Sequence record: OR842557
Length of the DNA: 64,000 nt
Direction: 5' to 3' (one strand)
Origin: Escherichia phage 04086
Shown here: positions 6,028 to 43,391 of the stretch, one piece after another
How positions within the stretch are numbered: position 1 is the stretch's first letter
How the letters are laid out: each line of letters begins with the position of its first letter
The notes under the pieces: generated by a model
Database searches by the model: none
What the model was told of the DNA's origin: nothing
The model's input: only the letters and a program-made list of their open reading frames with translations
Position numbers and translations under genes: made by a program

Positions 6028-6031
<4 letters not shown>

Positions 6032-6894: not shown

Positions 6895-6932
6895 CAAACC
6901 TCCTAAATGGCGCACCATGCGCCATGTATTAT

Positions 6933-28416: not shown

Positions 28417-28498
28417 TGAAAACCGAAGATTTTGCTCAAGGTCTATACGTTGCTGCAAAATTCTCTGAATTAACTTTAGATGCGCTGGAAAACCTTCA

Positions 28499-28970
<472 letters not shown>

Positions 28971-28981
28971 TTTAAAAAGGT

Positions 28982-29010
28982 GTTTACAAGGTCTATAGGC
29001 ATGATACTAT
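28982..29010 (+). promoter_or_regulatory. sigma70-type early promoter cassette (GTTTAC-17-TACTAT) with flanking inverted repeat
   Basis: GTTTAC at 28982-28987 and TACTAT at 29005-29010; inverted repeat ggtctatag/ctatagacc around the -10. Confidence 0.6.
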
Positions 29011-29047
29011 AGACCTATCAAAACAAACTAACCGCACGGAAATCAAA

Positions 29048-29320
29048 ATGAAAACTTATCAAGAATTTATCGCTGAATCTATTCTTAATGAGGAAGTAAA
29101 AATTAACAAATCTGTTAAGACTATGATTGATGATATAAATCATCTCTATAACATCGATTTGACTAATCACGTAACTTTAGGCAATAAGCGAAACTTTTTT
29201 GTATTTGATACTTCAGAACTCGACCAGAATCAAATTAACAATATTGAACGTTTTGCTAATGAAAAAGGACTGCGTCACGAAACGGCTGGTTATAAAAAGT
29301 ATGCAATTTATCTAAAATAA
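29048..29320 (+). CDS. ipI: internal protein (IP) with capsid-targeting leader
   Basis: N-terminus MKTYQEFIAES is the T4 capsid-targeting sequence (gp21 prohead protease site after FIAE); in the T4 ipI position downstream of 57B. Confidence 0.7.
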   Translation: MKTYQEFIAESILNEEVKINKSVKTMIDDINHLYNIDLTNHVTLGNKRNFFVFDTSELDQNQINNIERFANEKGLRHETAGYKKYAIYLK

Positions 29321-29322
29321 TT

Positions 29323-29352
29323 GTTTACAACGGGCTCTAGTGGTGATACTAT
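29323..29352 (+). promoter_or_regulatory. early promoter cassette (GTTTAC-18-TACTAT) with flanking inverted repeat
   Basis: GTTTAC 29323-29328, TACTAT 29347-29352; inverted repeat gggctctag/ctatagccc. Confidence 0.55.
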
Positions 29353-29388
29353 AGCCCTATCAAAACAAATGAGTGATTGGAGAATAAA

Positions 29389-29574
29389 ATGAAACGTTGC
29401 GAATTAATTAGAAATGTTACTGCACTGGCCGCTGTTACTGCTTTTGGCTTTAGTATGTTTGCAGGATTCATGCTCGATATGCTTTCAACTTCCGAGAATA
29501 TAATCTCTTTAGTAGTGGCATTTTTAATTGGTTCAATCTCTTTTGTTATGGATAAAATCTCTAAAGGTGAATAA
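29389..29574 (+). CDS. small hydrophobic protein (predicted membrane protein)
   Basis: 61 aa from ATG 29389 with the cassette leader ...ggagaataaaATG; two hydrophobic segments. Confidence 0.5.
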   Translation: MKRCELIRNVTALAAVTAFGFSMFAGFMLDMLSTSENIISLVVAFLIGSISFVMDKISKGE

Positions 29575-29975
29575 TGAACGTTGAATATTATGTATATGCG
29601 GATTATGAAAATAATCCGTCTAAAGATGAAGATAACCGTTTAGGTGTTGATGCTTTTGAATCCCCTGCTGCAGCTTGGCAATGGGTTGAAAGTACTGATA
29701 TTCCTTACCGTTATATTGAAGTGGTAGACCATGCAGGAAACAAGTATCCTAAGGAAGCATATGTTCCTTCTGGAAAGGTAAATTTCCTTTTGTTCGCGGG
29801 TGATAACTACTATCCACGTGGTGGCTATACCGATTTAATCGCTAAAGCTGCCACTGAAGATGAACTACGTGAAATTGTTAAAGAAAACGAGAATAAGTTT
29901 CTTTACGGCTCCGATCGTTTTGACTGGTGGCAGATTGTTAATGCTAATACCCATACTATTGTAGACGAGGGTTAA
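29574..29975 (+). CDS. hypothetical protein
   Basis: 133-aa ORF; start overlaps the upstream stop; no recognisable motif. Confidence 0.5.
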   Translation: MNVEYYVYADYENNPSKDEDNRLGVDAFESPAAAWQWVESTDIPYRYIEVVDHAGNKYPKEAYVPSGKVNFLLFAGDNYYPRGGYTDLIAKAATEDELREIVKENENKFLYGSDRFDWWQIVNANTHTIVDEG

Positions 29976-30260
29976 ATGCTATACGTTAAGGTTACTAATC
30001 CAGAGAATGGATATAATTCAGACCAGGTTGCAGCAGAGTTACTGATTCGCAACTTTGGCAAAGATGCCGTGCTTGATGTTCAACAGGTTAATATTGGCCG
30101 TAGTTCAAGCGACGTTAAACTCAAAGTTAACGGCCAACGTTATAATTCTGTTAACTTTACTTTTTATACCGCAACTGAAAACGGATTGGTCGAATACGAC
30201 ATCTTTAAAAATCCTTTGAAGATTGCTTCTATTAAACTTGATTACATTAATATGCTTTAA
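29976..30260 (+). CDS. hypothetical protein
   Basis: 94-aa ORF immediately following the previous stop. Confidence 0.5.
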   Translation: MLYVKVTNPENGYNSDQVAAELLIRNFGKDAVLDVQQVNIGRSSSDVKLKVNGQRYNSVNFTFYTATENGLVEYDIFKNPLKIASIKLDYINML

Positions 30261-30389
30261 GAATTATGTGATATTATTACTCTATCATTAATACCCTCTA
30301 TTACCAAAGGTTCTTCCCTCAAAGAACCTTTCATAATAGACAAGGTCTATTAATTAAACTTACTTTACTTAATTTTATTTGAGGTGTCT

Positions 30390-30656
30390 ATGTTAGTATT
30401 AAAATTAGCTTTTTATGACCCTAAAACCAAGACAACAACTACCAAACGTTGTTCTATTTCATATGAATGTCAATTTGGCGAAGTTGAACGAGACGGCAAA
30501 GCCTTTATGTCAATAGCGGATTCCACATTCGCTAAACCAAAAATAATTCCACTAGTTAACGTTGCGGCTTATCTGGTTGCTCCTGAAGAAATGACTTATC
30601 ATACAATTCAGCACATGGCTAAAGATGATAATGCCCCTGCTGGATTTGTAATTTAA
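30390..30656 (+). CDS. hypothetical protein
   Basis: 88 aa from ATG 30390 (GAGG RBS); the ORF-track start at 30384 is a GTG. Confidence 0.5.
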   Translation: MLVLKLAFYDPKTKTTTTKRCSISYECQFGEVERDGKAFMSIADSTFAKPKIIPLVNVAAYLVAPEEMTYHTIQHMAKDDNAPAGFVI

Positions 30657-30661
30657 ATTAA

Positions 30662-30738
30662 GGCCCTGTAGCTCAATGGTTAGCAGCAGTCCCCTCATAA
30701 GGGAAAGGTTACCAGTTCAAATCTGGTCCGGGTCACCA
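30662..30738 (+). tRNA. tRNA with CAU anticodon (Met or Ile2)
   Basis: 77 nt; acceptor stem, T-arm accag-TTCAAAT-ctggt, anticodon loop cuCAUaa, encoded CCA; D-arm irregular and one acceptor mismatch. Confidence 0.6.
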
Positions 30739-30743
30739 ACTAT

Positions 30744-30818
30744 GTCCCGCTGGTGTAATGGATAGCATACGATCCTTCTAAGTTTGCGGTCCTGGTTCGA
30801 TCCCAGGGCGGGATACCA
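30744..30818 (+). tRNA. tRNA-Arg (anticodon UCU)
   Basis: 75 nt; 7-bp acceptor stem gtcccgc/gcgggat, anticodon stem-loop cgatc-cuUCUaa-gtttg, T-arm cctgg-TTCGATC-ccagg, encoded CCA; T4 also encodes a tRNA-Arg(UCU). Confidence 0.8.
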
Positions 30819-30829
30819 AATGAAGACTA

Positions 30830-31198
30830 TTATATAGTCAAGCCGTCGTATGAAGACTGATTACCAGCATTCACCGGCGCACCAAACAAGAAACCGGGTC
30901 GCTACCGGTAAGTCGTCGGACTGATGTTCCCTGAATAAGGACTGACATTAACAAATCTTTACGATCTGTTAACGTCCCCTTACATCACAGCAGAAACGGC
31001 GCACCGAATTATCGATTCGAGGAAATATCTTTGCCGTAAGCCGAGTAGCGTTTTTGACGGAACGTTCGGATATGGTCGAGATATGGCCTTTTAAAAATAT
31101 TGAGTAGCGTCAACTACTTAATAACCGGGTTCGAATCCCGGCGTTTCGTACAAACACTTGCCTAGCAGGTGGAACCCCAACAAGGTTGCCGCAAGGCA
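30830..31198 (+). ncRNA. candidate small stable RNA region (possibly T4 RNA C/D-like), including a tRNA-like T-arm
   Basis: About 370 bp without an ORF directly after the tRNAs; canonical T-arm ccggg-TTCGAAT-cccgg at 31125-31141 with possible acceptor pairing cggaacg/cgtttcg; followed by a strong terminator. T4 has stable RNAs near its tRNA cluster, as I recall it. Confidence 0.35.
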
Positions 31199-31199
31199 T

Positions 31200-31228
31200 A
31201 GCCCCTTCCGAAAGGTTGGGGCTTTTTG
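31200..31228 (+). terminator. intrinsic terminator
   Basis: gcccc-ttccgaaaggtt-ggggc followed by TTTTT. Confidence 0.7.
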
Positions 31229-31268
31229 GCATAATAAATAGATAAGTTAATTAACTTAGGAAATAATA

Positions 31269-31477
31269 ATGAAAACTTACAATGAATTTTTGACCGAACA
31301 ATCTAGTTCAGATGTAAAAGCCGCTGCGATTGCAGCAATTCAAGCAGGTAAATATTCTTACAAAGACGCCTCTGATGAAGAACGNNNAACAAGGTTGCCG
31401 CAAGGCATAGCCCCTTCCGAAAGGTTGGGGCTTTTTGGCATAATAAATAGATAAGTTAATTAACTTAGGAAATAATA
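31269..31477. repeat. N-flanked duplicated block (assembly artifact)
   Basis: NNN at 31385-31387; 31269-31384 equals 31478-31593 and 31388-31477 equals 31179-31268. Confidence 0.75.
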
Positions 31478-31942
31478 ATGAAAACTTACAATGAATTTTT
31501 GACCGAACAATCTAGTTCAGATGTAAAAGCCGCTGCGATTGCAGCAATTCAAGCAGGTAAATATTCTTACAAAGACGCCTCTGATGAAGAACGTTTCCGT
31601 TTTATTAAAGATTTTAAAGCCGAAGGTTTTACTAATGCCAATACTGTTAGCCGAGTTTTTAAAAGCCTAGCTGCATCAGGTGAATTGTTCCAGAAAGCTA
31701 CAGGTAAAGCACCTGCTACAAAAGCGGACCCTAAAGCCTCTCAAGAAAAAAATATCGCCAAAGGAATTATTTCTAAGTATGAAGCAATTCTTAAAGAGCT
31801 TTTAGTAATCAAAACAGAAGGCCAGAAACTAGCACGAGCACATAGCTTCAAAGATAATCCGCATGCTCACGACTTAGAGTATGTTGAAGATATTCAGAAA
31901 ATCATCAAAGACCGTATCTGGTCTGCTAAACAAATCAAATAA
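31478..31942 (+). CDS. internal protein-like (capsid-targeting leader variant)
   Basis: 154 aa; N-terminus MKTYNEFLTEQ resembles the capsid-targeting sequence MKTYQEFIAE; lysine- and alanine-rich body. Confidence 0.55.
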   Translation: MKTYNEFLTEQSSSDVKAAAIAAIQAGKYSYKDASDEERFRFIKDFKAEGFTNANTVSRVFKSLAASGELFQKATGKAPATKADPKASQEKNIAKGIISKYEAILKELLVIKTEGQKLARAHSFKDNPHAHDLEYVEDIQKIIKDRIWSAKQIK

Positions 31943-31946
31943 CGAA

Positions 31947-31968
31947 AGCCCCAGATGGGGCTTTTTTG
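31947..31968 (+). terminator. intrinsic terminator
   Basis: agcccc-agat-ggggct followed by TTTTTT, just after the stop at 31942. Confidence 0.7.
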
Positions 31969-31986
31969 GTTAAATTAGAGAAATAT

Positions 31987-32541
31987 ATGAAACTTTTAAA
32001 ATATTTGAGTTGGGTTCTGTTGGTTCCACTGGATTTTATCTCTATGGTTCTGGCTGTTATCCTTGCGCCTTTTGTAGTTCCTTTCCACAATAAAAAGACC
32101 GGTAAATTGCCTTATGGCTTTGATTGGATGATGACATACGATAATCCAATTGACGGTGACAAAGGTCACATTAAACGTTGGGCTAAAATCAGGAAAATGC
32201 CAGGTGGTGTTTATCTCCAGAGAGTAGCTTGGCTATGGCGAAATAAAGCTTATAACTTTGCTTACCATAAACTCGGTCGTGATTGTAGCTCAGAATTCCA
32301 TTATCGTGGTAATCCTGACGTTGAATCCGGTTCTCCTGATAAAGCTCATCACGGGTGGTTATGGATGTGGAATGACGACGCCTGGGGTGTATTTGCTTCA
32401 GTTCCATATCTTAAGGTTGGTGGGATTACCTTTTACCTTCGCGTGTACTGTGGTTGGAAGCTTAAGAGCCTTTTGTCTCGTAAAATCCCTAAGGCCATGT
32501 TAGCCTTCCATGTAAACCCGTTCCGGTTCTACAAGAACTGA
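31987..32541 (+). CDS. hypothetical membrane-anchored protein
   Basis: 184 aa from ATG 31987; N-terminal hydrophobic helix (WVLLVPLDFISMVLAVILAPFVV); Trp-rich. Confidence 0.5.
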   Translation: MKLLKYLSWVLLVPLDFISMVLAVILAPFVVPFHNKKTGKLPYGFDWMMTYDNPIDGDKGHIKRWAKIRKMPGGVYLQRVAWLWRNKAYNFAYHKLGRDCSSEFHYRGNPDVESGSPDKAHHGWLWMWNDDAWGVFASVPYLKVGGITFYLRVYCGWKLKSLLSRKIPKAMLAFHVNPFRFYKN

Positions 32542-32545
32542 TTCT

Positions 32546-32575
32546 AGGCCCTTCCGAAAGGTTGGGCCTTTTTTG
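32546..32575 (+). terminator. intrinsic terminator (same cassette as 31200-31228)
   Basis: aggccc-ttccgaaaggtt-gggcct followed by TTTTTT. Confidence 0.7.
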
Positions 32576-32598
32576 TTTCTAAAAAGTTTAAAAAAGAT

Positions 32599-32627
32599 GT
32601 TTACTCTTTCGTAGAACATGATACTAT
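32599..32627 (+). promoter_or_regulatory. early promoter cassette (GTTTAC-17-TACTAT)
   Basis: GTTTAC 32599-32604, TACTAT 32622-32627, followed by the agacctatcaaaacaa leader. Confidence 0.55.
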
Positions 32628-32662
32628 AGACCTATCAAAACAACAGTGTGAAGGAGAGTAAA

Positions 32663-32926
32663 ATGGATAATTATGGTGAAGTGTTTAATTTCTTTATGAA
32701 ATGTGTTCCGGAAGAATTTGGTGCTACAGTTAACGATATTAAAGTTATCGGTCCTGAACACCCAGTGTATGAAACCTATGCAGTAATGGGTAATGAAGAT
32801 GGACAGTGGTATACAATTAAAGTTGTGATTAATATGTTCTCAGCTGAAGGCTACGCCAAATCGTCTACCAAAGTTTACCATGATAACGATTTTGATGCGG
32901 AAGATTATTTCAATAATATGAAATAA
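32663..32926 (+). CDS. hypothetical protein
   Basis: 87 aa from ATG 32663 with AGGAG RBS; the ORF-track start at 32648 is a GTG. Confidence 0.5.
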   Translation: MDNYGEVFNFFMKCVPEEFGATVNDIKVIGPEHPVYETYAVMGNEDGQWYTIKVVINMFSAEGYAKSSTKVYHDNDFDAEDYFNNMK

Positions 32927-32929
32927 AAT

Positions 32930-32959
32930 GTTTACATGGGCTCATGATTAAGATATTAT
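32930..32959 (+). promoter_or_regulatory. early promoter cassette (GTTTAC-18-TATTAT) with flanking inverted repeat
   Basis: GTTTAC 32930-32935, TATTAT 32954-32959; inverted repeat gggctcat/atgagccc. Confidence 0.5.
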
Positions 32960-32984
32960 GAGCCCATAATTTGAGGAGAACATA

Positions 32985-33383
32985 ATGAATATCGAAGATA
33001 AAGAAATGCAAGAGTTGTATAATTCATTAACACCTGAACAACAAAAATATGCCAAAGAATTAGAGAAAGCCCTTGCTTTCAACTTGGCAAAAACTGATTG
33101 GGCCGCGATGTATGAAGAAAAAACTAGATTAGAACTTGAAGCTGCTGAGAGAAATGAATGGATTGTCGAAACCAAGATTTCTGATGGTGGTTGCTCTGTT
33201 GAGGTGTCTGCTGTAATTAAAGGTACCCATGGCGAAAAATCATGGGGCTGGCATAATGAAGCAAACAAACATATTGTTCTCTCAACGTCAAAAACTTATG
33301 GCCAAAGGGTTCCTGTATCTAAAGCTATTATTAAGCAAGCTCAATGGGAAGCCAATGAAATTTGCCTCGCGAAAATGAAATAA
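32985..33383 (+). CDS. hypothetical protein
   Basis: 132-aa ORF with GAGGAG RBS. Confidence 0.5.
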   Translation: MNIEDKEMQELYNSLTPEQQKYAKELEKALAFNLAKTDWAAMYEEKTRLELEAAERNEWIVETKISDGGCSVEVSAVIKGTHGEKSWGWHNEANKHIVLSTSKTYGQRVPVSKAIIKQAQWEANEICLAKMK

Positions 33384-33387
33384 AAAT

Positions 33388-33417
33388 GTTTACAACCCTC
33401 AGAGGACAGGGTATAAT
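33388..33417 (+). promoter_or_regulatory. early promoter cassette (GTTTAC-18-TATAAT) with flanking inverted repeat
   Basis: GTTTAC 33388-33393, TATAAT 33412-33417; inverted repeat gaggac/gtcctc. Confidence 0.6.
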
Positions 33418-33460
33418 GTCCTCATGGATTACAAAACGTTAACCAACTGAAGGAAATACT

Positions 33461-34054
33461 ATGAACACTTTAAAGAAACTCGTTGAATTCATTCGTTCTA
33501 AACTGGGTACCGCAATGGCTCAGAACCTGTCAATTGAAGACCAGTATACTAAAGCTGCTTCTACCTTGATTGATAAAATCACTGAGCTCCAGACTGCCCA
33601 TGTTAAGTCTGTGAATGAAGAAAAACGTATTCGTGAACTCGCTAACGAAAAGGACCAACTGGCTAGTTCCAAAGAACGCGAAATTCGTAAACTGATTAAA
33701 GAAGGTGCCGATGTCCAGGTACATGCTAAACTCGGCCTCCTTTATCGTCGTACGGCTACTCAACTTCGTAAGAAAGCCGATGATTATGTTGAAATGCGTA
33801 ATGAAATTAAGCTTAAGGTCAAGGAACTTGATGACTCTCGCCAGGAACTAGCGGTTAAGCTTGAGTACATTCGTGAAACTCGTAATATGGCCGCCCTGGG
33901 TATTGCTACTGCCGATGATGTTGTTGAAATCGCTGCATTGACTAAGATTGATATTGAAGACACCCTGATGCGTGTAGAAACGTTTAAAGGCCCACAAGTT
34001 GGAATGGATACGACTTCTGCTGATATCGAAGACTACATTAATTCACTTAAGTAA
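33461..34054 (+). CDS. coiled-coil protein of unknown function
   Basis: 197 aa, strongly helical with heptad-like composition; no catalytic motif seen. Confidence 0.5.
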
Positions 34055-34061
34055 TGTTACT

Positions 34062-34084
34062 GGGAGACTTCGGTCTCCCTATTT
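34062..34084 (+). terminator. terminator-like hairpin
   Basis: gggagac-ttcg-gtctccc followed by a weak T-run (tattt). Confidence 0.4.
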
Positions 34085-34102
34085 GGAGGAGAGGAGAATA
34101 TT

Positions 34103-34639
34103 ATGAGCTTATATGATAATTTGATATCCAATATTGATTGGTTTAAAAATAGCGGTCTTTCCCATGAAACCAATTCAGTTCTTTATAGAATTCGCCAAGA
34201 CCTAGGCTATTCAAACGATTTCTTAAGCAGAACATCTAGCCGTGGCGATACTACCAAATTACCTTTTATTTTTGCTTTAGCTGAAGACCTTTCTTTTGAA
34301 GATGCTTTGGAAATTATTGACGTAAATCTGGCTATTCAACGAGTGGAATTCGCTGGACTACGTTATTCAGTATATTCTCTAAACGAGAGCGCTGATTGTG
34401 TGCTTCTTAATATGGCAGACGATGATTACCATTTAGTATGTTATGTAGCTTTAGAAAATGGTGATGTATTTGGAATGGTTGACCGCCGTCCATCTTACTC
34501 TGATATTAAAAATTATGATAAAGCCGAGCTTGGTATCTTAACTACTGAGTACACATTAGAAAGTCGTAAACAACAACGTAAGCTTAATCGTTTTATTGCT
34601 GAATGTCGCGAATACGCTAAAGAGGTTCAAAATGCATAA
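34103..34639 (+). CDS. hypothetical protein
   Basis: 178-aa ORF with strong RBS ggaggagagg. Confidence 0.5.
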   Translation: MSLYDNLISNIDWFKNSGLSHETNSVLYRIRQDLGYSNDFLSRTSSRGDTTKLPFIFALAEDLSFEDALEIIDVNLAIQRVEFAGLRYSVYSLNESADCVLLNMADDDYHLVCYVALENGDVFGMVDRRPSYSDIKNYDKAELGILTTEYTLESRKQQRKLNRFIAECREYAKEVQNA

Positions 34640-34985
34640 GCCTAGTAAAACCGACCCTGGTTACGCATTAGCAGATTATGATATAGCTATTTCCTTATTC
34701 CTCGGCATTGCTACTAGTATGACTGCAGGGATAATTGGATTTCTTGTCGGTGGGATTATTAATGGTATGCCTCGCCATCCGTTTGAAGATATGAGCCTTG
34801 CATGGATTTGGGTTCCGGCTTTAATAGGATTTTTTATCCCATGGGTCTTTGATATTGCCCAAACTAATAAAATAAACAAGCCACGTAAAAAGAGATATGC
34901 TTTAGCTATGGCTAATTATAATGAGTATGTAAAACAAACTAAACGTAATGACCTTGAAACCTTTATTAAGGAATGTAAATCATGA
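34632..34985 (+). CDS. predicted membrane protein with C-terminal FIKEC module
   Basis: 117 aa from ATG 34632; two hydrophobic helices; C-terminus ...NDLETFIKECKS resembles the C-terminus of ORF 39065-39652. Confidence 0.5.
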   Translation: MHKPSKTDPGYALADYDIAISLFLGIATSMTAGIIGFLVGGIINGMPRHPFEDMSLAWIWVPALIGFFIPWVFDIAQTNKINKPRKKRYALAMANYNEYVKQTKRNDLETFIKECKS

Positions 34986-35272
34986 ATAAAATTGAAATTG
35001 AAATCCCTGAATACAACAGCGCGCTGTCTGCAGAAAAGGCTATCTATGCTCTTCTGAATAAAGTGAATACCATCGAACATGAATGTGAAGCCATTGCCGA
35101 TAAGTATGGTATTCAATTCGGAACCGGTGATTATGGTTCAGGCCGTACATATTATCCTGTCGGTTATGAATGCTCCCAGTGGTTTAAAGATGAAATTGAA
35201 AACAATGGCGGTGAAGTTGAAAACGGTGTCGTTACAGTTGGTGCTTGGGTCTCCTCTTCGGCAATGTGCTAA
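34982..35272 (+). CDS. small protein, member 1 of the WxSSSxxC tandem paralog array
   Basis: 96 aa; ends GAWVSSSAMC; the next gene starts 9 nt downstream behind taaggaa. Confidence 0.6.
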   Translation: MNKIEIEIPEYNSALSAEKAIYALLNKVNTIEHECEAIADKYGIQFGTGDYGSGRTYYPVGYECSQWFKDEIENNGGEVENGVVTVGAWVSSSAMC

Positions 35273-35281
35273 GGAAACGCT

Positions 35282-35563
35282 ATGATGAATGATTACCGTA
35301 AAAATAAAGAGCTGGCTGAAGCAGTAAATGATATTCATAAAGCTATTCGTCGTGCTGAGGAAATTGCTAACAAATATGAGACTCATTTTAATATATACCC
35401 TGCTCGCGGTATGGGCGGTGACTATTATTCTCCTGGCGCCCTGAAAGCCGACCTTGCCCACTGGGAAGAATACGGTGAAGCTCAGTACGCTATTGTAAAC
35501 CAACATGATTACACTACCAGCCTAGAAAATGGTGGATGGGTATCCTCTTCTTCTGAATGTTAA
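35282..35563 (+). CDS. small protein, member 2 of the WxSSSxxC tandem paralog array
   Basis: 93 aa; ends GGWVSSSSEC; shares KY...YYxP core with member 1. Confidence 0.6.
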   Translation: MMNDYRKNKELAEAVNDIHKAIRRAEEIANKYETHFNIYPARGMGGDYYSPGALKADLAHWEEYGEAQYAIVNQHDYTTSLENGGWVSSSSEC

Positions 35564-35572
35564 GGAATTATT

Positions 35573-35770
35573 ATGTCTCGTGAACTAGATTGTGCAATCC
35601 GGACCGCTGCTGCGGCTATTGAAAACGTTATCCAGATTTGCAAAGAAGAACGTGAAGAAGCTGATATCTACATCGATGGTCAACGTGACCTGGAACGTCA
35701 TATCACGCTTTATAACGGTTGTATTACTATTAGTGGTACCTCTTGGGTGTCCTCCTCTTACGAATGCTAA
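35573..35770 (+). CDS. small protein, member 3 of the WxSSSxxC tandem paralog array
   Basis: 65 aa; ends TSWVSSSYEC. Confidence 0.6.
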   Translation: MSRELDCAIRTAAAAIENVIQICKEEREEADIYIDGQRDLERHITLYNGCITISGTSWVSSSYEC

Positions 35771-35779
35771 GGTAATAAA

Positions 35780-35992
35780 ATGACTATTGATGAAATTGAA
35801 AAACAAATCCGTGAATTAGTACGTAAAGGCCAGTCCGTGGCTGACGAAACAGGTGAAGAGTTCCATGTTTCTGGTCGTGGACAATACATTTCTCCAAAGA
35901 ACCCGGAATATGATGATTACGAATGGGTCCGTGATGATTACGGCATTCCTGATGGTGATGGTTTCTGGTTTACTTCTTCTATGTCTTGCTAA
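35780..35992 (+). CDS. small protein, member 4 of the WxSSSxxC tandem paralog array
   Basis: 70 aa; ends GFWFTSSMSC. Confidence 0.55.
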   Translation: MTIDEIEKQIRELVRKGQSVADETGEEFHVSGRGQYISPKNPEYDDYEWVRDDYGIPDGDGFWFTSSMSC

Positions 35993-36002
35993 GGAAATAA
36001 AA

Positions 36003-36227
36003 ATGTCTGATATTAATGAATTAGAAAAAGCTGCTCTTGAACTGGCTGCACTGTATAAGAAAGTAAAAGATATGGCTTCTGCCCAGGATTTCGGTGTTGA
36101 GCTCGATGATTATGACGGTGAAGTTCGTCTCGAAGATTGGCTGAATAGCTCTTGTTATGGTGAAGAAGCTGGTCGCACCTTCGTTGCTCAGGCCGATGGT
36201 AAAATCTGGTATCCGAGCTCATGCTAA
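36003..36227 (+). CDS. small protein, member 5 of the WxSSSxxC tandem paralog array
   Basis: 74 aa from ATG 36003 (ORF-track start 35853 is an overlapping extension); ends KIWYPSSC. Confidence 0.55.
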   Translation: MSDINELEKAALELAALYKKVKDMASAQDFGVELDDYDGEVRLEDWLNSSCYGEEAGRTFVAQADGKIWYPSSC

Positions 36228-36448
36228 AATTAAAGAAAAGATACATTCGTAAAATAAATGGTCTTCGCGATTATGCCAAAGGTTGGCCACTAAGTATTAT
36301 TATGGCTGATAGACACCCACGTTATAATACCGAGATGACTTATTACAAAAAGTATGATTCGTATTGTCGGTCTAAAGCAGGCCGTTTAGATGGTTCTTAC
36401 GAAGACTATTTTGGTAAAAAACCTACTCGTGTTTCGTTAGGAAAATAA
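36221..36448 (+). CDS. hypothetical basic protein
   Basis: 75 aa; ATG overlaps the preceding stop. Confidence 0.45.
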   Translation: MLKLKKRYIRKINGLRDYAKGWPLSIIMADRHPRYNTEMTYYKKYDSYCRSKAGRLDGSYEDYFGKKPTRVSLGK

Positions 36449-36478
36449 TTTAACCACATGGATGTGGTAGGAGGACTT

Positions 36479-36808
36479 ATGCATAAAGATTCAGTATTCA
36501 AATATCTTTTGAAAACAGATAAAGAATTCTATATGAATGGGCAAGCCTTCTTGTTCGTTCGTGGTAAACGTGAGATGTTTTACAAATGCGACCTCTCAAT
36601 GCACCATCATATGTATCACACCCACGGCGAGCCTATACTGGGGTTCTCTGGTGACGAAACTAGACATATAGCTATGTACTACGACCATTTTAAGCTCAAT
36701 GATTGTGGTGACAACGCTTTGGTCTGGAATCCATCTTGGCGTCGTTGGGATACGGTAGACAACGATAAATTATTTTTAGAATATTGCAGAAGTGATGTAC
36801 AACTCTAA
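36479..36808 (+). CDS. hypothetical protein
   Basis: 109 aa from ATG 36479 with AGGAGG RBS; His-rich (MHHHMYHTH). Confidence 0.5.
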   Translation: MHKDSVFKYLLKTDKEFYMNGQAFLFVRGKREMFYKCDLSMHHHMYHTHGEPILGFSGDETRHIAMYYDHFKLNDCGDNALVWNPSWRRWDTVDNDKLFLEYCRSDVQL

Positions 36809-36824
36809 AAATACGTGTTACTAT
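36795..36824 (+). promoter_or_regulatory. possible early promoter (ATGTAC-18-TACTAT)
   Basis: Weaker -35 but the same TACTAT -10 as the cassettes; upstream of ORF 36852. Confidence 0.3.
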
Positions 36825-36851
36825 TACCCTACACAAACATGAGGAGAACAT

Positions 36852-37091
36852 ATGTGGTATTACGCTCCGATGTCCGATAAGTCTAATGAACCGGTACGCA
36901 TTACTCGTGCCAAGTTTAAAAAGATTTACGGCTTTGCTTATAAGAAGTCTGATTACGGTGTTCGTTTTGAAGATGCCCACTGTATCAATGACCCTTATGC
37001 AGAAGAAATCTCTAATGAGATAATTCCTATCGTTGAGAGTAATTCCAATGATATGTGGGAATTGCATAACACTTACGTTGCCGAAATTTAA
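36852..37091 (+). CDS. hypothetical protein
   Basis: 79-aa ORF with GAGGAG RBS. Confidence 0.5.
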   Translation: MWYYAPMSDKSNEPVRITRAKFKKIYGFAYKKSDYGVRFEDAHCINDPYAEEISNEIIPIVESNSNDMWELHNTYVAEI

Positions 37092-37110
37092 GTTTACTGA
37101 GGAAAATATT

Positions 37111-38070
37111 ATGATGTTAGTTATTGGTTCTCGTGCACTGCACCAAGCTGGTTTGATTGAAAGTAAGTATATCGAAAATTCTGATTGGGATTTCATTGCC
37201 GACCAAGGCTCATGGAACCACTTTAAAGCACGTATGTTCGGTGCTCATGTACACGTTGACAATCCTGATGTTCAGGCTTTCAAATGTATGCATAATGGTA
37301 AAGAAACCTATTTCGAAGCTTATATCGTCCGGGCCCTGACTAATGTACGAGAAATTACCGGTGAGCTCCAAGATGAAGACTACACCTCAAGCTATCGTCT
37401 CCTGAAATATGCTGAAACCCATATTAAAAAGGACCGTCTTACAGGTTTCTATTGGGCAACGCCTGATATCTGTCTGGCTATCAAAACCTCTCATCGTTTC
37501 CTGAAGAATAATCCATTCTTCCTGAAAACTATGTCCCACATCAAATACCTTCGTAATAAAGGTATCACCCTGAATGAAGAACTCCAGGAAATTATGCTGC
37601 AACGTCAAAAAGAAACGTTGAGCTATTCCCATCCTAAATTGGATGTAAACAAATCATCGTTCTTTAATGATACCATTTATACCCTAGACCATGACTCTAT
37701 TCATGAAGCAGTGGCATTGGCAGGGCGCCCTGCATATACCTTTTATATGAAGGAAGGTTCTGAAGTCATGACCTCTCGTGAGAAGTTCGAGGCTTTGCCT
37801 GAAGCTATTAAACTGGCCGGTGTGTATGAAGAAACTTGTGTCCTGGCCCTAGAACGTTCACAGGTTCCTAATGACTTCAATATTTCACCATCATTAAGTT
37901 TCTATATGGCTCTTGAGAAAGTGTGTACCTCAATCACTTCAGGTTGGTTCCGCGAGTACGCCTGGGAAAACTACCAAGCTGTGGTTAATATGTATAAGGC
38001 TCTAGGTGAAAACGACTACATCAAGCGTTTCCAAGATAACCATCATTTAATTCGTCCTTTCGAAAAATAA
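37111..38070 (+). CDS. hypothetical protein with weak nucleotidyltransferase-like motif
   Basis: 319 aa from ATG 37111 (RBS GAGG); N-terminal VIGSRALHQAG...ENSDWDF loosely resembles a GS...DxD pattern and the N-terminus of ORF 50846. Confidence 0.45.
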   Translation: MMLVIGSRALHQAGLIESKYIENSDWDFIADQGSWNHFKARMFGAHVHVDNPDVQAFKCMHNGKETYFEAYIVRALTNVREITGELQDEDYTSSYRLLKYAETHIKKDRLTGFYWATPDICLAIKTSHRFLKNNPFFLKTMSHIKYLRNKGITLNEELQEIMLQRQKETLSYSHPKLDVNKSSFFNDTIYTLDHDSIHEAVALAGRPAYTFYMKEGSEVMTSREKFEALPEAIKLAGVYEETCVLALERSQVPNDFNISPSLSFYMALEKVCTSITSGWFREYAWENYQAVVNMYKALGENDYIKRFQDNHHLIRPFEK

Positions 38071-38083
38071 TTGCACAAAACAG

Positions 38084-38111
38084 TGTACAAGGTCTATAGG
38101 TGTGATACTAT
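38084..38111 (+). promoter_or_regulatory. early promoter cassette (GTGTAC-16-TACTAT) with flanking inverted repeat
   Basis: Near-identical to the 28982 cassette (caaggtctatagg...gatactatagacctatcaaaacaa). Confidence 0.5.
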
Positions 38112-38148
38112 AGACCTATCAAAACAACAGAGTGAAATGGAGAATAAA

Positions 38149-38361
38149 ATGAAACTTTCTAACCAAGCAATCAACATGTTAAACGAAGTTCGTGCAGCTG
38201 GTGCTAAATGCCTGATGGTTAACACTCGTGACGGTGACCTTCGTCAAGCATTTGGTGAATTGAAATCTGCTGACCTGGTTAAATGTTCAGTTGGTATTGG
38301 TAACGCACTTCGTGTATCCTTATCTCCTAAAGGTAAAATGTACTTTTTCAACAAAAAGTAA
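38149..38361 (+). CDS. hypothetical small protein
   Basis: 70 aa from ATG 38149 with the cassette leader gagtgaaatggagaataaaATG. Confidence 0.5.
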   Translation: MKLSNQAINMLNEVRAAGAKCLMVNTRDGDLRQAFGELKSADLVKCSVGIGNALRVSLSPKGKMYFFNKK

Positions 38362-38375
38362 GTGAGGAAAATATT

Positions 38376-39065
38376 ATGAACGGTCCGAAAACTTTTAATT
38401 CTCAAGCTCGTGCAGTCGGTGGTTTTGCTCAAGATATCAGTAATGATATGATTAAAAATGAGCCTATGTTCTTTAATTGCGATGCTTATTTTGCTCATAA
38501 ACACGGTGGTCCTATTACTCGTAGCTTTATTGAAAACCTGCCTGAAGATTGGCAATGTGGCCCTGATATTGTATTTGATTCCCGTGTACACATGTTAATG
38601 CCTGGCTGGTACCCTGCTATCCCAGGTTATCACCATGATGACGTACCGCGCCCGGATATTCCAGTTGGCCAACACTTTATTACTGCAGGGCAACCTGATT
38701 ATGATAATCCTCGATACCATTCTGAACATATTCTTGGTCTTGTTAACGCTGGTGTGTGTCCTACCCATTTTGCAACCGGAACTGCACAGTTCAGTCAGAT
38801 TCCTGAAGGCGAACTTATCTATCGCCAGTGGCATAAAGAAGTTCTGGAAAAAATTGAGTCCAATGAATTAACCAAGTGGGATGCTCCTGACCGCACGTTG
38901 CTCCAGTTTGATTGGCAGACATGGCATACAGGTTCTCGTGCAGTAAGTAATGGGTGGCGCTGGTTTGGTCGTGTGTCTCGTAATACAGACCGTGTTAAAA
39001 AGATTACAAATGAAATCCGCGTTAATGCTCAAGTATATCTGGAATTCCCTATGGAGGGCTGGTAA
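38376..39065 (+). CDS. hypothetical protein
   Basis: 229-aa ORF with GAGG RBS; His/Asp/Trp-rich; no confident motif. Confidence 0.5.
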   Translation: MNGPKTFNSQARAVGGFAQDISNDMIKNEPMFFNCDAYFAHKHGGPITRSFIENLPEDWQCGPDIVFDSRVHMLMPGWYPAIPGYHHDDVPRPDIPVGQHFITAGQPDYDNPRYHSEHILGLVNAGVCPTHFATGTAQFSQIPEGELIYRQWHKEVLEKIESNELTKWDAPDRTLLQFDWQTWHTGSRAVSNGWRWFGRVSRNTDRVKKITNEIRVNAQVYLEFPMEGW

Positions 39066-39652
39066 TGGCCCTTTATGAACCTGGTTGTATGGGTATTGAT
39101 ACAAACTTCATCCGTCGGTCGGAAAATGCTGGAATTATTATCCCAAGTGGTGAGACTATGATTATTAAAAAGTCCTGGCGAAATATTGATGATGGTGATG
39201 AAGGAATTTCAGCCAGTACAATAGATTGGTCAGGTTGTACTGCCGAAATGAAACAGCTTTTAATTGAGGAATATAAAATGGGCTATATCGTAAATGGCTG
39301 GCAAGCGGAACCACATAAAGAACAGACTCCAGACCCATTGATTTGTTATAGCAAAAAATACGGCTTCCGTGCATGGAGTGATGAATACGACAAATTGGTG
39401 AGTTCTAGATTCTATGTTTGGATGGGTATATTATTTTTCCCACTCCTAGGGTTTTTCCTGACAACAGATAATGACCTGCCTATTTGTGTATTCGCTTCAG
39501 CGATGTCTGCTGCTATCTTAGGTCTTATCGCATCATTTTTATGGACATCGGTTATCGAAGTACCTTTTCGTATTTCTAAAGTTAAAAAGGTATATGATGA
39601 TATCACTAAGAAAAATACATTAAACTCTTTTATTAAGGAATGCCGTAAATGA
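39065..39652 (+). CDS. predicted membrane protein with C-terminal FIKEC module
   Basis: 195 aa; hydrophobic segments in the C-terminal half; C-terminus ...NTLNSFIKECRK. Confidence 0.5.
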   Translation: MALYEPGCMGIDTNFIRRSENAGIIIPSGETMIIKKSWRNIDDGDEGISASTIDWSGCTAEMKQLLIEEYKMGYIVNGWQAEPHKEQTPDPLICYSKKYGFRAWSDEYDKLVSSRFYVWMGILFFPLLGFFLTTDNDLPICVFASAMSAAILGLIASFLWTSVIEVPFRISKVKKVYDDITKKNTLNSFIKECRK

Positions 39653-39885
39653 GCATTGCAATTTATATTAAATCTGAGTCATGTGATTCTTATCTGTATT
39701 CCTATGATACCGGAACATCAGAAGAGAAAATCAAAGAAGATTTAGAAAGCGATATGGATATGTTCTGTCCTATTGGTGACTATATGCTTCAAGTGTCTGA
39801 TAATGAAAGTCCATCATCAGAAAATAGACTTCAAATTATTATGCAAGATATTTTTAAACAATCATGGGAACGAGACGATGGGTAA
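39649..39885 (+). CDS. hypothetical acidic protein
   Basis: 78-aa ORF; stop overlaps the Nudix gene start. Confidence 0.45.
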   Translation: MSIAIYIKSESCDSYLYSYDTGTSEEKIKEDLESDMDMFCPIGDYMLQVSDNESPSSENRLQIIMQDIFKQSWERDDG

Positions 39886-40327
39886 GAAAGCTAAGGAATC
39901 ATCGGCAGGTATTTTGTTCATGACCGTTGATAAAGAACTGGTCATGGGTCGTGTAACAGGCTCTCGTAATCCAGAGAACATGCGTCATAAATGGGACATT
40001 CCTAAAGGTCATGTCGAACCAGGCGAAGAGCCTATTCAAGCGGCAATGCGCGAAACCGAAGAAGAGATTGGATTCACAGCATACGATCCTGCGTTCCTGA
40101 AAGACCTAGGTGAGTTCAAATATTCAAGCAATAAGAATCTACATCTGTTCTTATATACAGTGCCTGTGGAACACGAGCAGTTCAAGGATTGCAAATGTAC
40201 GGCTTACCATACGTTCCCTGATGGTCGCACGGTTCCTGAATTCGATGCGTTCGCTTTGATTAAACGTCCGCAATGGGAATATGTCATGGGCCCGTCGATG
40301 TATAAAGTTTTGAGTTCGCTCTTTTGA
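39878..40327 (+). CDS. nudE: Nudix hydrolase (NudE-like)
   Basis: Nudix box GHVEPGEEPIQAAMRETEEEIGF; start at ATG 39878 overlapping the upstream stop; position matches T4 e.1. Confidence 0.8.
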   Translation: MGKKAKESSAGILFMTVDKELVMGRVTGSRNPENMRHKWDIPKGHVEPGEEPIQAAMRETEEEIGFTAYDPAFLKDLGEFKYSSNKNLHLFLYTVPVEHEQFKDCKCTAYHTFPDGRTVPEFDAFALIKRPQWEYVMGPSMYKVLSSLF

Positions 40328-40335
40328 TATAAATA
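40328..40335 (+). promoter_or_regulatory. T4-type late promoter (TATAAATA) upstream of the HNH gene and lysozyme
   Basis: Exact plus-strand TATAAATA 5 nt upstream of the HNH ATG and about 730 nt upstream of e. Confidence 0.45.
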
Positions 40336-40340
40336 CCCGT

Positions 40341-41093
40341 ATGAATTATTTAAAAATATATGAATCTTTAATAGAATCCACTATTAAAAGACCTCACATA
40401 TGTGGGTACACCGAAAAACATCATATTTTACCGAAATCGATGGGTGGTAGTGATTCTATTGATAACTTAGTCGACCTCACCGCCCGAGAACATTTTATTG
40501 CACACCTATTATTGGCACGGATTTTTAAAAATCGCGAAATGTGGTCCGCTGTATATATGATGGCTTCAACAAGCTTGTCAAACTCTGACAGACATAGATG
40601 TTCATCGCATTTGTACGAATTATTGCGAGAACGTGCATCAATATATAATTCAGGTGAAAATTCTCCAAATTGGGGAATTAAACGTTCCGAAGAAACACGA
40701 TTAAAAATGTCAATTTCGAAAATGGGTTCCAAAAATCCAATGTATGGGATTCCTCAATGCTCGGAACACACCAACAAAATTAGTCTTGGTGTTATTGAAG
40801 CTTTTAAAAATCCGGAAATAAAAGAGCGACATAGGCAAAGTGTTTCCGGGGAACTCAATGGGTTTTATGGAAAGAACCATTCCGAAAAAAGTTTGGAAAA
40901 ACAACGGAATGCAAAACGGAAAGGATTTCCTTGGGACAATTATTCAGAATTGTACCCAATTTGGGTTTCATTAAATTGTCCCAAACATCCAACATTCACA
41001 AATGAACTTGTTAAATTGGGATATCCTAAAAAGAAACTTGTTCGAATAGTGGAAGAATTTAAAAATGAATATCTTCGAAATGTTACGCCTTGA
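40341..41093 (+). CDS. HNH homing endonuclease with NUMOD-like repeats
   Basis: [10 protein letters not shown]...[32 protein letters not shown] plus repeated SxxxxGxxNPMYG-type modules; the 3' end overlaps the lysozyme start by 29 nt. Confidence 0.8.
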
Positions 41094-41553
41094 TGAAGGC
41101 TGTAAATTGGACTTATATAAGGATACTGAGGGCTACTATACTATTGGCATTGGCCAATTGATTACTAAGAACCCTTCTAAAGATGTTGCTCGTGCTGAAC
41201 TTGATAAGCTTATGGGTCGAGTTTGTAATGGTCGTATTACTATGGCTGAAGCTGAACAACTCTTTAACCGATCGGTTGAAAATGCTCGTAGAGCTATTCT
41301 GCGTAATCCTAAATTGAAACCTGTTTATGATGTACTGGACGAAGTTCGTCGTTGTGCTTTAATTAACATGGTCTTCCAAATGGGTGAAGCAGGCGTAGCA
41401 GGGTTCACTAACTCTTTACGTATGCTCCAACAGAAACGTTGGAACGATGCGGCAGTTAACCTGGCTCAATCCCGTTGGTATAAACAAACTCCTAATCGTG
41501 CTAAGCGTGTTATCGCCACCTTTAAAACCGGCACATGGGCTGCTTATAGATAA
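41065..41553 (+). CDS. e: endolysin (T4 lysozyme e)
   Basis: 162 aa; [30 protein letters not shown] with Glu11/Asp20/Thr26 conserved; ...[31 protein letters not shown]...NRAKRVI matches T4 lysozyme. Confidence 0.95.
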
Positions 41554-41558
41554 AAGCA

Positions 41559-41587
41559 GTTTACATCTCCTGTAGTCATGATACTAT
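41559..41587 (+). promoter_or_regulatory. early promoter cassette (GTTTAC-17-TACTAT) with 11-bp inverted repeat that includes the downstream RBS
   Basis: atctcctgtag ... ctacaggagat arms flank the -10; the 3' arm contains the AGGAG RBS of denV. Confidence 0.6.
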
Positions 41588-41615
41588 AGACCTATCAACT
41601 ACAGGAGATTAAAAA

Positions 41616-42023
41616 ATGACTCGTATCAACCTTACCTTAGTATCTGAATTGGCTGACCAACACTTAATGGCTGAATACCGTGAACTCCCACGGATTTTTG
41701 GTGCGGTTCGCGAACGTATTGCCAAAGGGCAAGGCTTCTCTGATATCCCTAAAGACTTCCGCCTTGGTGCAGGGCACGTCAAGTTCTTTTATGTCAAAAT
41801 TGGATTTTTGTTCTTGCGACAAAATGCAATAATTGAGGAACTTCTGAAGCGTGGTTACCAGATTCAAAATACCCATGTAGACGTAGCGGATATTCCATTA
41901 CGGCTCATGAACGATTTCACCCCATCCGAAGCTGATATAGCTTTAAGCCAAGCTCGATTGGACGAAAAAATTGCACAACGCCCTACCTGGTACAAACATT
42001 ACGGCAAGGCTATTTACGCTTAA
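41616..42023 (+). CDS. denV: endonuclease V (pyrimidine dimer DNA glycosylase) DenV
   Basis: 135 aa; [26 protein letters not shown]...[25 protein letters not shown] matches T4 DenV. Confidence 0.95.
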
Positions 42024-42065
42024 TTAAACCCGTGATAGAATACTTCTATCAACTTAAGGAATAAT

Positions 42066-42425
42066 ATGAAAACTTACCAACAATTTATTACTGAATCTAC
42101 TCAGCGCATTAACGAAGCTATGTCTCCTGAACAGTTGGCTAAAGCTAAAGAAGGGCTGAACCCGTCCGAAGTCTTTAAAGTTACAGGTAAAGATTTCTCT
42201 TCCATGGCCACTAACCAAAGTCTGGCTAAAGAACTTAAATCTAAATCTAACTTCATTCATGCTACATGGAATGGTGATTCTCTTACTTCAATAAGTGTGT
42301 ACAATAAAAAAGGTCTCCTTAAGAGTTCTTATGGCGCGGATGCCATCCGTGTTTCTAAATCAGATTGGCATAAAAACACTACTAAAGCAGAAAAACCTCA
42401 TAACCCGGCACTTGACCATCTTTAA
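42066..42425 (+). CDS. internal protein (capsid-targeting leader)
   Basis: 119 aa; N-terminus MKTYQQFITES. Confidence 0.65.
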   Translation: MKTYQQFITESTQRINEAMSPEQLAKAKEGLNPSEVFKVTGKDFSSMATNQSLAKELKSKSNFIHATWNGDSLTSISVYNKKGLLKSSYGADAIRVSKSDWHKNTTKAEKPHNPALDHL

Positions 42426-42433
42426 GGAATAAT

Positions 42434-42691
42434 ATGAAAACTTACCAGCAATTTATCGCAGAATCCACTTTAGTTTCTAAACGTTGGAATATGATTGTAA
42501 ACGTTAAACCTTCCGGCACTGAAGTTTCTATGGCCGACCCTAATGATGACGAACTTGAGCACGCTTTTAGCTCTAAAGAAACTGACGAGAAAGTGGTTAA
42601 GCAACTGGTTGCTGATGCAGACCAACTTCGTAAAGTAGCAGATGTTGTTAAGCTGTTTACTAAGAAAGGTTTTAAACACGAAGAGCGTTAA
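42434..42691 (+). CDS. internal protein (capsid-targeting leader)
   Basis: 85 aa; N-terminus MKTYQQFIAES; starts behind taaggaataatATG. Confidence 0.65.
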   Translation: MKTYQQFIAESTLVSKRWNMIVNVKPSGTEVSMADPNDDELEHAFSSKETDEKVVKQLVADADQLRKVADVVKLFTKKGFKHEER

Positions 42692-42699
42692 TTAGCATT

Positions 42700-42848
42700 T
42701 TAAATGGGAGCAAGCTGGACCTCGCAATTCTGTGAGGGACTCCCGCCAACCTGTAATAAGGTCGAGCCCAAGTGCGGTAATGGGTAAATGCAGAAAGGGA
42801 CGAATTAATGTGCCAAGGAATGGCCCCTCCACTTAAAAAGAGACAATT
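42700..42848 (+). ncRNA. candidate structured RNA / regulatory leader
   Basis: About 150-bp GC-richer gap with nested helices (gggag...[cctcgca-attc-tgtgagg]...ctccc); no ORF and no promoter cassette. Confidence 0.25.
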
Positions 42849-43391
42849 ATGAAATTTTTAACCGGTAGTTATCTATCCCTGATGAATGCTTTTGCAAACC
42901 ATTCTGATGCTAGAGTAGAACACATTTGTAATAGTGGGTTTTATGTACCTGATTCACAAACCCTGTTTAAAGAATGCTGCACCTTAAAACTTGATGGTGG
43001 GCGCCAATCCGGTAAAACTAAAGCAGTATCCATTTTTGCCACAGAATGGTTAGCTAATGGCGGCTCTATTGTTATTTTATCTAATAACACGGCATATGCC
43101 AATGTTTCGGCTAGTGCAATCCGAAAGGAATATTTTAATAACCATACAGAAAGTATTAAGTACCGTTTGTACACTGATTCTGTTCGTAGTTTTATTGGTA
43201 ATACTGCATGCAAATTCCGTGGATTATCGCTTTCACGTGTTCTGTATATAATTGATGAGCCTGTTAAAACACCTAATATGGATAAGATTTATGATGCCCA
43301 TATAAAGGTGGTGCAACATTGCTGTCATGCATCATGTGTCGAAACCAATCAAACTGCTCGTCCTCTGTTCTTTGTGATAGGAATGCAATGA
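42849..43391 (+). CDS. small P-loop NTPase-like protein
   Basis: 180 aa; Walker A GGRQSGKT and candidate Walker B LYIIDEP. Confidence 0.5.
   Translation: MKFLTGSYLSLMNAFANHSDARVEHICNSGFYVPDSQTLFKECCTLKLDGGRQSGKTKAVSIFATEWLANGGSIVILSNNTAYANVSASAIRKEYFNNHTESIKYRLYTDSVRSFIGNTACKFRGLSLSRVLYIIDEPVKTPNMDKIYDAHIKVVQHCCHASCVETNQTARPLFFVIGMQ

Follow-up and report, generated by a model that had tools for sequence, protein, structure and literature searches.

Leader-bearing genes of a Dhakavirus coliphage as candidate injected internal proteins of the T4 class

The idea that internal head proteins are injected into the host together with the phage DNA dates from the 1990s and belongs to textbook knowledge. 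The internal proteins of T4 and its relatives are of this kind. IPI, which is packaged in T4 heads, inhibits the GmrSD enzyme of strain CT596, and Ip2 and Ip3 are inhibitors of two other GmrSD variants, one each (PMC12373910). A further protein with the same capsid-targeting sequence (CTS), Bas37_0260, is encoded in the ipI slot and inhibits McrBC (bioRxiv 10.1101/2025.11.20.689424). All four functionally characterised CTS proteins (IPI, Ip2, Ip3 and Bas37_0260) inhibit type IV restriction enzymes. Moreover, T4 needs IPIII to infect strain ECOR17, and IPIII is active in the cytoplasm even without the CTS. Here, we analyse a stretch of 64,000 nucleotides from Escherichia phage 04086 (sequence record OR842557), referred to as the window, in which an earlier note had pointed out four open reading frames (ORFs) that start with this leader. 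They are called P1 to P4 in order of their position in the window. With a probability of roughly three in four, they are ip genes of a T4-type phage, whose products are packaged by means of the leader, processed and injected, and probably counter host nucleases.

The CTS itself has been studied in some detail. It is quoted as MKTYQEFIAE (PMC8442874), and the first 10 residues of IPIII are enough for incorporation into the head, with targeting resting mainly on residues 4 and 7 and processing on residues 8 and 10 (PMC9026906). The tag alone has been reported to be sufficient for packaging foreign proteins fused to it (PMC9026906; PMC8442874).

Four genes with the capsid-targeting leader

P1 (29048-29320, 90 amino acids), P2 (31478-31942, 154 amino acids), P3 (42066-42425, 119 amino acids) and P4 (42434-42691, 85 amino acids) are all found on the + strand and start with MKTYQEFIAES, MKTYNEFLTEQ, MKTYQQFITES and MKTYQQFIAES, respectively, at exactly the coordinates and with exactly the N-termini given in the earlier note. 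Their common leader pattern, MKTY(Q/N)(E/Q)F(I/L)(A/T)E, is identical or nearly identical to the MKTYQEFIAE with which T4 IPII and IPIII start, and the leaders have the MKT(Y/F)xEF(I/L)xE-like form of the Ip class, with aromatic residues at positions 4 and 7. In the six-frame translation of the window, the pattern MK[ST][YF]xxF[ILVM]xE was observed five times against an analytic expectation of 7e-4 and was matched 0 times in 300 shuffles, and a looser scan of the window for the leader returned no members beyond these matches. Tyr4, Phe7, Ile/Leu8 and Glu10 are present in P1-P4 and throughout the family of each of them, while the leader varies elsewhere, for instance to MKSYAQFLNE in the Tequatrovirus homologues of P2 and to MKTYQEFITES in a 54%-identical homologue of P4. 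The (I/L)-x-E motif of the prohead protease gp21 falls on leader residues 8-10 in every case (FIAE/S in P1, FLTE/Q in P2, FITE/S in P3 and FIAE/S in P4, the slash marking the predicted cut), and further (I/L)xE sites are found at residue 15 of P1 (ILNE/E) and residue 17 of P3 (RINE/A). As judged from its sequence, the leader of P1-P4 is the T4 CTS. The match to this signal that had been claimed for the four ORFs holds at each of the residues required for targeting and processing.

The window has a G+C content of 39.3%, and its positions 28000-44000 share 91-96% identity with the Dhakavirus coliphages LHE83, PSD2002, WG01 and JS10; on sequence grounds, the phage is a Dhakavirus of the JS98/JS10 group of T4-like coliphages. 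In each of P1-P4 the start methionine is the earliest start codon past the preceding in-frame stop, with a Shine-Dalgarno-like AGGA or GGAA sequence on its 5' side. Homologues were detected with tblastn in 199 (P1), 511 (P2), 90 (P3) and 6 (P4) phage records, and public phage genomes hold near-identical copies of all four. Codon comparisons were made for two of the genes: P3 and its ABTNLS3 copy differ by 14 synonymous and one non-synonymous changes, and P1 and Ip9 of RB32 by 32 synonymous and 18 non-synonymous changes. The genes are under purifying selection. Since they are conserved in relatives and their differences are mostly synonymous, P1-P4 are taken to be real genes on comparative evidence.

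That some of the ORFs might be chance reading frames or products of faulty assembly is suggested by the state of the window, which contains N-joined duplications, one of which yields a spurious fifth MKTY ORF. This fifth leader match (31269-31454, +) is a truncated duplicate of the start of P2, with 39 codons followed by NNN, and belongs to an exact tandem duplication of 206 bp whose copies meet at NNN. Five more such N-joined exact duplications occur among the ten N sites of the window, and RB32 carries the stretch only once, which marks the fifth match as an assembly artefact. None of the junctions falls within the four full ORFs, which recur in 6 to 511 independent phage records with mostly synonymous differences, so that for P1-P4 the possibility is refuted and it applies to 31269-31454 alone, leaving it a negligible probability overall. 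The count of four members given in the earlier note is thus right for full genes, although the fifth match, which is no gene, had been overlooked.

Single N or NNN sites were found at 2816, 3096, 22809, 23070, 28499, 31385-31387, 58705-58707, 62704, 63045 and 63769. In six of the ten cases the N is spanned by an exact tandem duplication, 80-431 bp long, and the remaining four show no more than a repeated 25-mer. These sites look like un-merged overlaps of a draft assembly, and the duplications give rise to spurious partial ORFs such as 28418-28498 and 31269-31454.

Payloads, promoters and loci

Beyond the leader, the four proteins have nothing in common. BLASTP found no significant similarity between the leader-stripped payloads, and hhalign comparisons of these payloads with one another and with 12 other leader-bearing families (T4 IPI, IPII and IPIII, Bas37_0260, Ip4, Ip5, Ip7 and five further families) gave a probability of at most 3% in every case, from shallow alignments that very remote kinship could escape. 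The claim that the cargo parts are unrelated is therefore borne out, and the four form a family only in the sense of a common leader, nothing else joining them. Searches of Pfam and NCBIfam gave no match above threshold for any of P1-P4; PF11634, the IPI_T4 nuclease inhibitor family, matches none of them, while the T4 IPI control matches it at 7e-54. With regard to IPI, Ip2, Ip3 and Bas37_0260, tblastn and BLASTP aligned the leader only, and hhalign remained at or below 3%. The proposal that one of the four might be the McrBC inhibitor Bas37_0260 was rejected, as the match is confined to the leader and no relationship appears with hhalign.

P1 is the member that can be assigned to a named protein. 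It matches phrog_7673, annotated 'internal head protein', with E=2e-56 over residues 1-90 of 90, and is 79% identical to Ip9 of RB15 and 79-80% identical across the Ip9 proteins of RB15, K3 and RB32. From this similarity, P1 is assigned as an orthologue of Ip9, a name used in RB15 and RB32. Its gene lies between 57B and trna.4, which is the T4 ipI slot. The AlphaFold model (mean predicted local distance difference test, pLDDT, 87.5) shows a payload domain at residues ~19-90 with an alpha-beta-beta-alpha-beta-beta arrangement, and its structural neighbours are generic only. Just 5' of P1, at 28983-29010 (+), an early sigma-70-type promoter (TTTACA-16-TACTAT with an upstream TG) overlaps a stem-loop, the whole reading GTTTACA...TGATACTATAGACC. 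A second early-promoter/stem-loop cassette, at 29324-29352 (+), directly follows the stop codon and forms the homology arm on the right of P1. The same type of promoter/stem-loop cassette is found at T4 ipI and at the Ip5, Ip9 and Ip7 genes of RB32.

The P1 domain, some 72 residues long, also occurs without the leader in other phages. It is encoded by the first gene of an early operon in the Kagunavirus JSSK01 (72 amino acids), lies inside an array of small genes in the Seuratvirus siphophage KS_A3 (74 amino acids) and forms the C-terminal end of a 755-residue Kuttervirus protein. The latter (phrog_3867, of unknown function; Salmonella phage pertopsoe, 491-2758 of the piece examined) adjoins genes annotated as structural and may be another delivery route for an Ip9-like domain. 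The presence of the domain in phages with other DNA chemistries is, in our reading, a mild argument against a target strictly specific for hydroxymethylcytosine. The Ip9 payload may be an anti-defence module that is agnostic to the mode of delivery.

P3 and P4 lie between denV and vs.8, a slot that holds three leader-bearing ORFs in RB69 and one Ip7-like gene in JS10. P3, a member of phrog_3966, shares 34% identity with RB69 ORF123c. The site 5' of it, at 42013-42041 (+), is an early-type promoter-like sequence (TTTACG-17-TAGAAT with TG) and a weaker version of the P1-type site; the same sequence precedes the Ip7-like gene of JS10 in this slot. P4 starts 8 nt past P3 with the same ribosome-binding site and leader DNA, and on account of this short gap and these shared sequences the two genes are probably co-transcribed. 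The exact T4 late promoter sequence TATAAATA was not found in the 130-200 nt examined upstream of P1, P3 and P4. P4 is an orphan family, present in 6 phage records and in two clusters among 1.84 billion representative proteins, where an exhaustive HMMER search returned only P4 itself and the one homologue with 54% identity. Two leads concerning P3 were set aside. The search of PDB sequences produced one hit only, of P3 to 9HNH; as 9HNH is a computationally designed solenoid, this is a chance hit driven by composition. The label 'RNA polymerase ADP-ribosylase' on the P3 homologue of ESCO10 is supported by no database search and was disregarded; P3 is far too short for Alt.

These promoters bear on a different explanation, in which the shared 5' end is nothing other than a mobile cassette for translation initiation and recombination, and the proteins are early, cytoplasmic and unpackaged. 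Early-type promoters precede P1 and P3, the leader DNA is a recombination boundary, and in Kagunavirus and Seuratvirus phages an early gene encodes the P1 domain without any leader. Yet what is conserved of the leader is its amino acids, at precisely the positions that matter for function, also in cases where the DNA is different; a promoter of the same type precedes T4 ipI, whose product IPI is nonetheless packaged; and the reported ability of the tag alone to package any protein fused to it also speaks against this explanation, which we regard as quite improbable.

P2 is found in a different context, directly 3' of the tRNA genes and a homologue of the rnaD/rnaC region and before an e.8 homologue. 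This post-tRNA slot is empty in T4 and occupied in RB32, Bas37 and Mineola. The P2 cassette is inserted immediately past the stretch 30881-31232 (+), which has 92% identity to the part of T4 where the small stable RNAs rnaD and rnaC are annotated and is covered by no Rfam family. The sequence AATAAATA at 31442-31449 (+), 28 nt 5' of P2, matches the T4 late promoter at 7 of 8 positions, and in both RB32 and Klebsiella phage Mineola its place is taken by the exact TATAAATA. A terminator-like GC hairpin lies 5' of P2 at 31199-31232 (+) and is repeated at 32546-32576; the two copies bound an insertion or deletion relative to ABTNLS3 that comprises P2 and the ORF at 31966-32541 (191 amino acids). 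In RB32, too, the terminator hairpin recurs past the P2-homologue gene.

The P2 protein consists of a helical N-domain (residues 12-70), a linker rich in Lys, Pro and Ala and a C-terminal helical hairpin. Its AlphaFold model is helical (pLDDT 72) and matches generic helical hairpins only. Structure prediction of the cargo, which had been put forward in the earlier note as a way of checking its proposal, has thus provided models for P1 and P2, from whose generic matches no function can be read. P2 belongs to phrog_2280, a widespread family that has no name and is annotated 'unknown function', and the homologues in RB32 (RB32ORF133c) and Bas37 (bas37_0244) bear the annotation hypothetical. Mineola gp134 is 57% identical to P2 in the N-domain and has a different C-terminal domain, which appears by eye to be nearer to that of bas37_0243. 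In Bas37 (KarlGJung), bas37_0243 and bas37_0244 are adjacent leader genes past the tRNA cluster (6029-7191 of the piece examined), and both belong to phrog_2280. P2 and its family may represent a third ip locus, driven by a late promoter, placed past the tRNA genes of T4-type phages from Escherichia to Klebsiella, shuffled in its domains and unrecognised in annotations. Taken jointly, this suggestion and that of Ip9 as a delivery-agnostic module are tentative.

The features of P2 bear on the classical 'basic internal protein' view, according to which P1-P4 are packaged to fill the head or to neutralise the charge of the DNA and have no specific host target. P2 and P3 are basic (pI 9.5 each), and P2 has the Lys/Pro/Ala-rich linker, an N-domain conserved between Escherichia and Klebsiella phages at 57% identity, and homologues with an exact late promoter in RB32 and Mineola. 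Such conservation is unlike the hypervariability expected of genes in an arms race, and a review of the T4 head reports that lysines of internal proteins touch DNA phosphates. Conversely, the pI values of P1 (6.8) and P4 (6.1) are neutral to acidic, and all characterised members have specific anti-restriction targets. Additionally, the set of these genes varies freely among close relatives, the window phage having neither IpIII nor IpII, which argues that none of them is structurally required. A purely head-filling or charge-neutralising role for the four is for these reasons considered unlikely, and a role in injection and anti-defence is preferred; P2, with its N-domain conserved across genera, is the least certain anti-defence protein among them.

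Exchange of payloads at the ip loci

P1, P3 and P4 are located in the variable ip loci (57B-trna.4 for P1 and the e/denV/vs.8 region for P3 and P4), and P2 in the third slot. The alignment of the window with JS10 shows how the content of these loci changes. The two sequences share 96% identity over 57B and 90% over the promoter and the leader, as far as nucleotide +32 of P1. Across the P1 payload they show no homology, which resumes, at 96%, with the stop codon. In JS10, the ipI slot holds an unrelated ORF of 97 amino acids with the leader MKTYQEFIKE (2689-2982 of the piece examined), which is unannotated in the GenBank record. The denV-vs.8 slot shows the same pattern of exchange, and a breakpoint at the end of the leader is seen in the alignments of the window with both JS10 and ABTNLS3. 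These breaks in homology at the end of the leader show cassette exchange. In total, 12 payload families are found on the same leader across five genomes (the window, ABTNLS3, JS10, RB32 and T4).

The region past the lysozyme gene e differs by whole genes. In the window, e is followed directly by denV, without the gene for a 132-residue protein and the IpIII and IpII genes that are present there in the close relative ABTNLS3. These three leader genes occupy 12083-13504 of the ABTNLS3 piece examined, and the window counterpart, 41553-41618, is a promoter cassette only.

In this reading, the ip genes are exchangeable cassettes, with promoter, ribosome-binding-site and leader DNA as the left homology arm and a promoter or terminator hairpin as the right one. 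These arms account for the different payload sets of related phages. Promoter-early stem-loop (PeSL) cassettes have been proposed to drive the modular shuffling of ORFans (PMC2839356). The PeSL cassettes of RB49 and phi1 resemble the arrangement at P1 in that an early promoter overlapping a stem-loop is present on both flanks, and differ from it in that at P1 the protein-coding leader is itself part of the left homology arm.

Two further observations concern the neighbourhood of these loci. An HNH/homing-endonuclease ORF (phrog_655) at 40341-41093 (+), whose 3' end overlaps the start of the lysozyme gene e (41065), is not found at this position in JS10 or ABTNLS3. At 34982-36227 (+), five tandem paralogous ORFs of 65-96 amino acids belong to phrog_899 and phrog_4882, both of unknown function, and have in common an invariant G..W..SS..C motif at the C-terminus, such as GGWVSSSSEC.

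Proposed function and comparison with known systems

From the leader and from what is known of the class, we infer packaging, cleavage, injection and a host target for P1-P4. Each ip gene would be translated with the 10-residue CTS, which would tie the protein to the scaffolding core during prohead assembly. There, gp21 would cut past Glu10 at the (I/L)-x-E motif, and perhaps again past Glu15 in P1 and Glu17 in P3, leaving mature payloads of ~80, 144, 109 and 75 residues (P1-P4) inside the head. These would be ejected into the cell along with the DNA and, being there before phage gene expression, would each most likely neutralise one host nuclease directed against the modified DNA as it enters. 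Among possible targets, GmrSD-like or McrBC-like type IV restriction enzymes would be the most probable. The conserved leader makes packaging and processing of P1-P4 very probable; by analogy with the characterised members, an anti-defence function is somewhat favoured, and type IV restriction as the specific target is a suggestion that the same analogy makes possible rather than probable. The earlier note had described the four as candidate injected anti-defence effectors with new specificities. This is the accepted reading for the class, as exemplified by IPI, Ip2, Ip3 and Bas37_0260, and the novelty had been overstated, P1 being already named Ip9.

Several points weigh against this proposal. 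No payload of P1-P4 is homologous to any characterised inhibitor, and the predicted folds match only generic structures. P1 and P3 have early-type promoters without an exact late promoter, though T4 ipI is arranged alike. The basic P2 and P3 could be plain DNA-associated head proteins, and leaderless homologues of P1 are found in phages whose DNA is modified differently or is not known to be modified. Furthermore, the gp21 protease gene, like gp67 and gp68, lies outside the 64-kb window, and the literature searched, whose coverage was limited, yielded no virion proteomics of Dhakavirus internal proteins. In favour of the proposal, gp21 of IME08 and VR5, phages of the same genus, is 88-89% identical to T4 gp21.

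Proteins that are injected act before phage gene expression and thereby help to decide whether a therapeutic or wild T4-type phage infects a given strain. Targets are known for only four such proteins, all of them type IV restriction enzymes. As P2, P3 and P4 carry uncharacterised payloads and P1/Ip9 has only been named, the four are ready candidates for new inhibitors, and the leaderless Ip9 homologues offer a simple means of testing a payload alone. If Ip9 is indeed delivery-agnostic, its target would have to be present in the hosts of phages that differ widely in the chemistry of their DNA, and this would count against the proposal that all ip-locus products target GmrSD variants.

Overall, P1-P4 are ordinary additions to a known, fast-swapping class of genes and do not constitute a new phenomenon; the current picture of how the system works is unchanged. 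The Dhakaviruses probably differ from T4 in the modification of their DNA. JS98-type phages have gene 42 and no glucosyltransferases, and the cytosine-arabinosylation cluster of RB69 is predicted to occur in them as well. They may therefore face other host enzymes than those by which T4 is restricted. P1-P4 are perhaps of particular relevance to enzymes directed against the cytosines of these phages, which are non-glucosylated and probably arabinosylated. The window phage also lacks the homologues of T4 IPII and IPIII that its close relative ABTNLS3 has. The payloads of P1-P4 have no detectable sequence or profile similarity to IPI, IPII or IPIII, including the absence of a PF11634 match, and share with them the CTS leader and its (I/L)xE site, the same or adjoining loci and the same type of promoter cassette; both sets are small, non-essential and swappable. 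Bas37_0260 of the Tequatrovirus KarlGJung, described in the HIDEN-SEQ preprint, is likewise a small CTS protein, encoded in the ipI slot, for which a role against type IV restriction has been demonstrated; its match to P1-P4 is limited to the leader, with no relationship detected by hhalign.

In RB69, ORF123c-125c are CTS genes in the denV-vs.8 slot, as are P3 and P4 here. RB69 has no counterpart of P4, and its ORF123c (2501-2830 of the piece examined) differs from P3 at leader position 10, with Ala instead of Glu (MKTYQEFIAAV), and may for this reason be packaged without cleavage at the usual site. The phrog_2280 proteins RB32ORF133c, bas37_0244 and Mineola gp134 are the family of P2, with which they have in common the locus, the leader, the late promoter and the flanking terminator hairpins. 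The C-terminal domains are shuffled among the members, and in P2 of the window the leader region is five residues shorter than in the others, two LxE sites being merged into one. The closest system is Ip9 of RB15, K3 and RB32 (phrog_7673), which like P1 has 90 amino acids, occupies the same slot, has the same repeated promoter cassettes at its flanks and shows no difference in kind from it.

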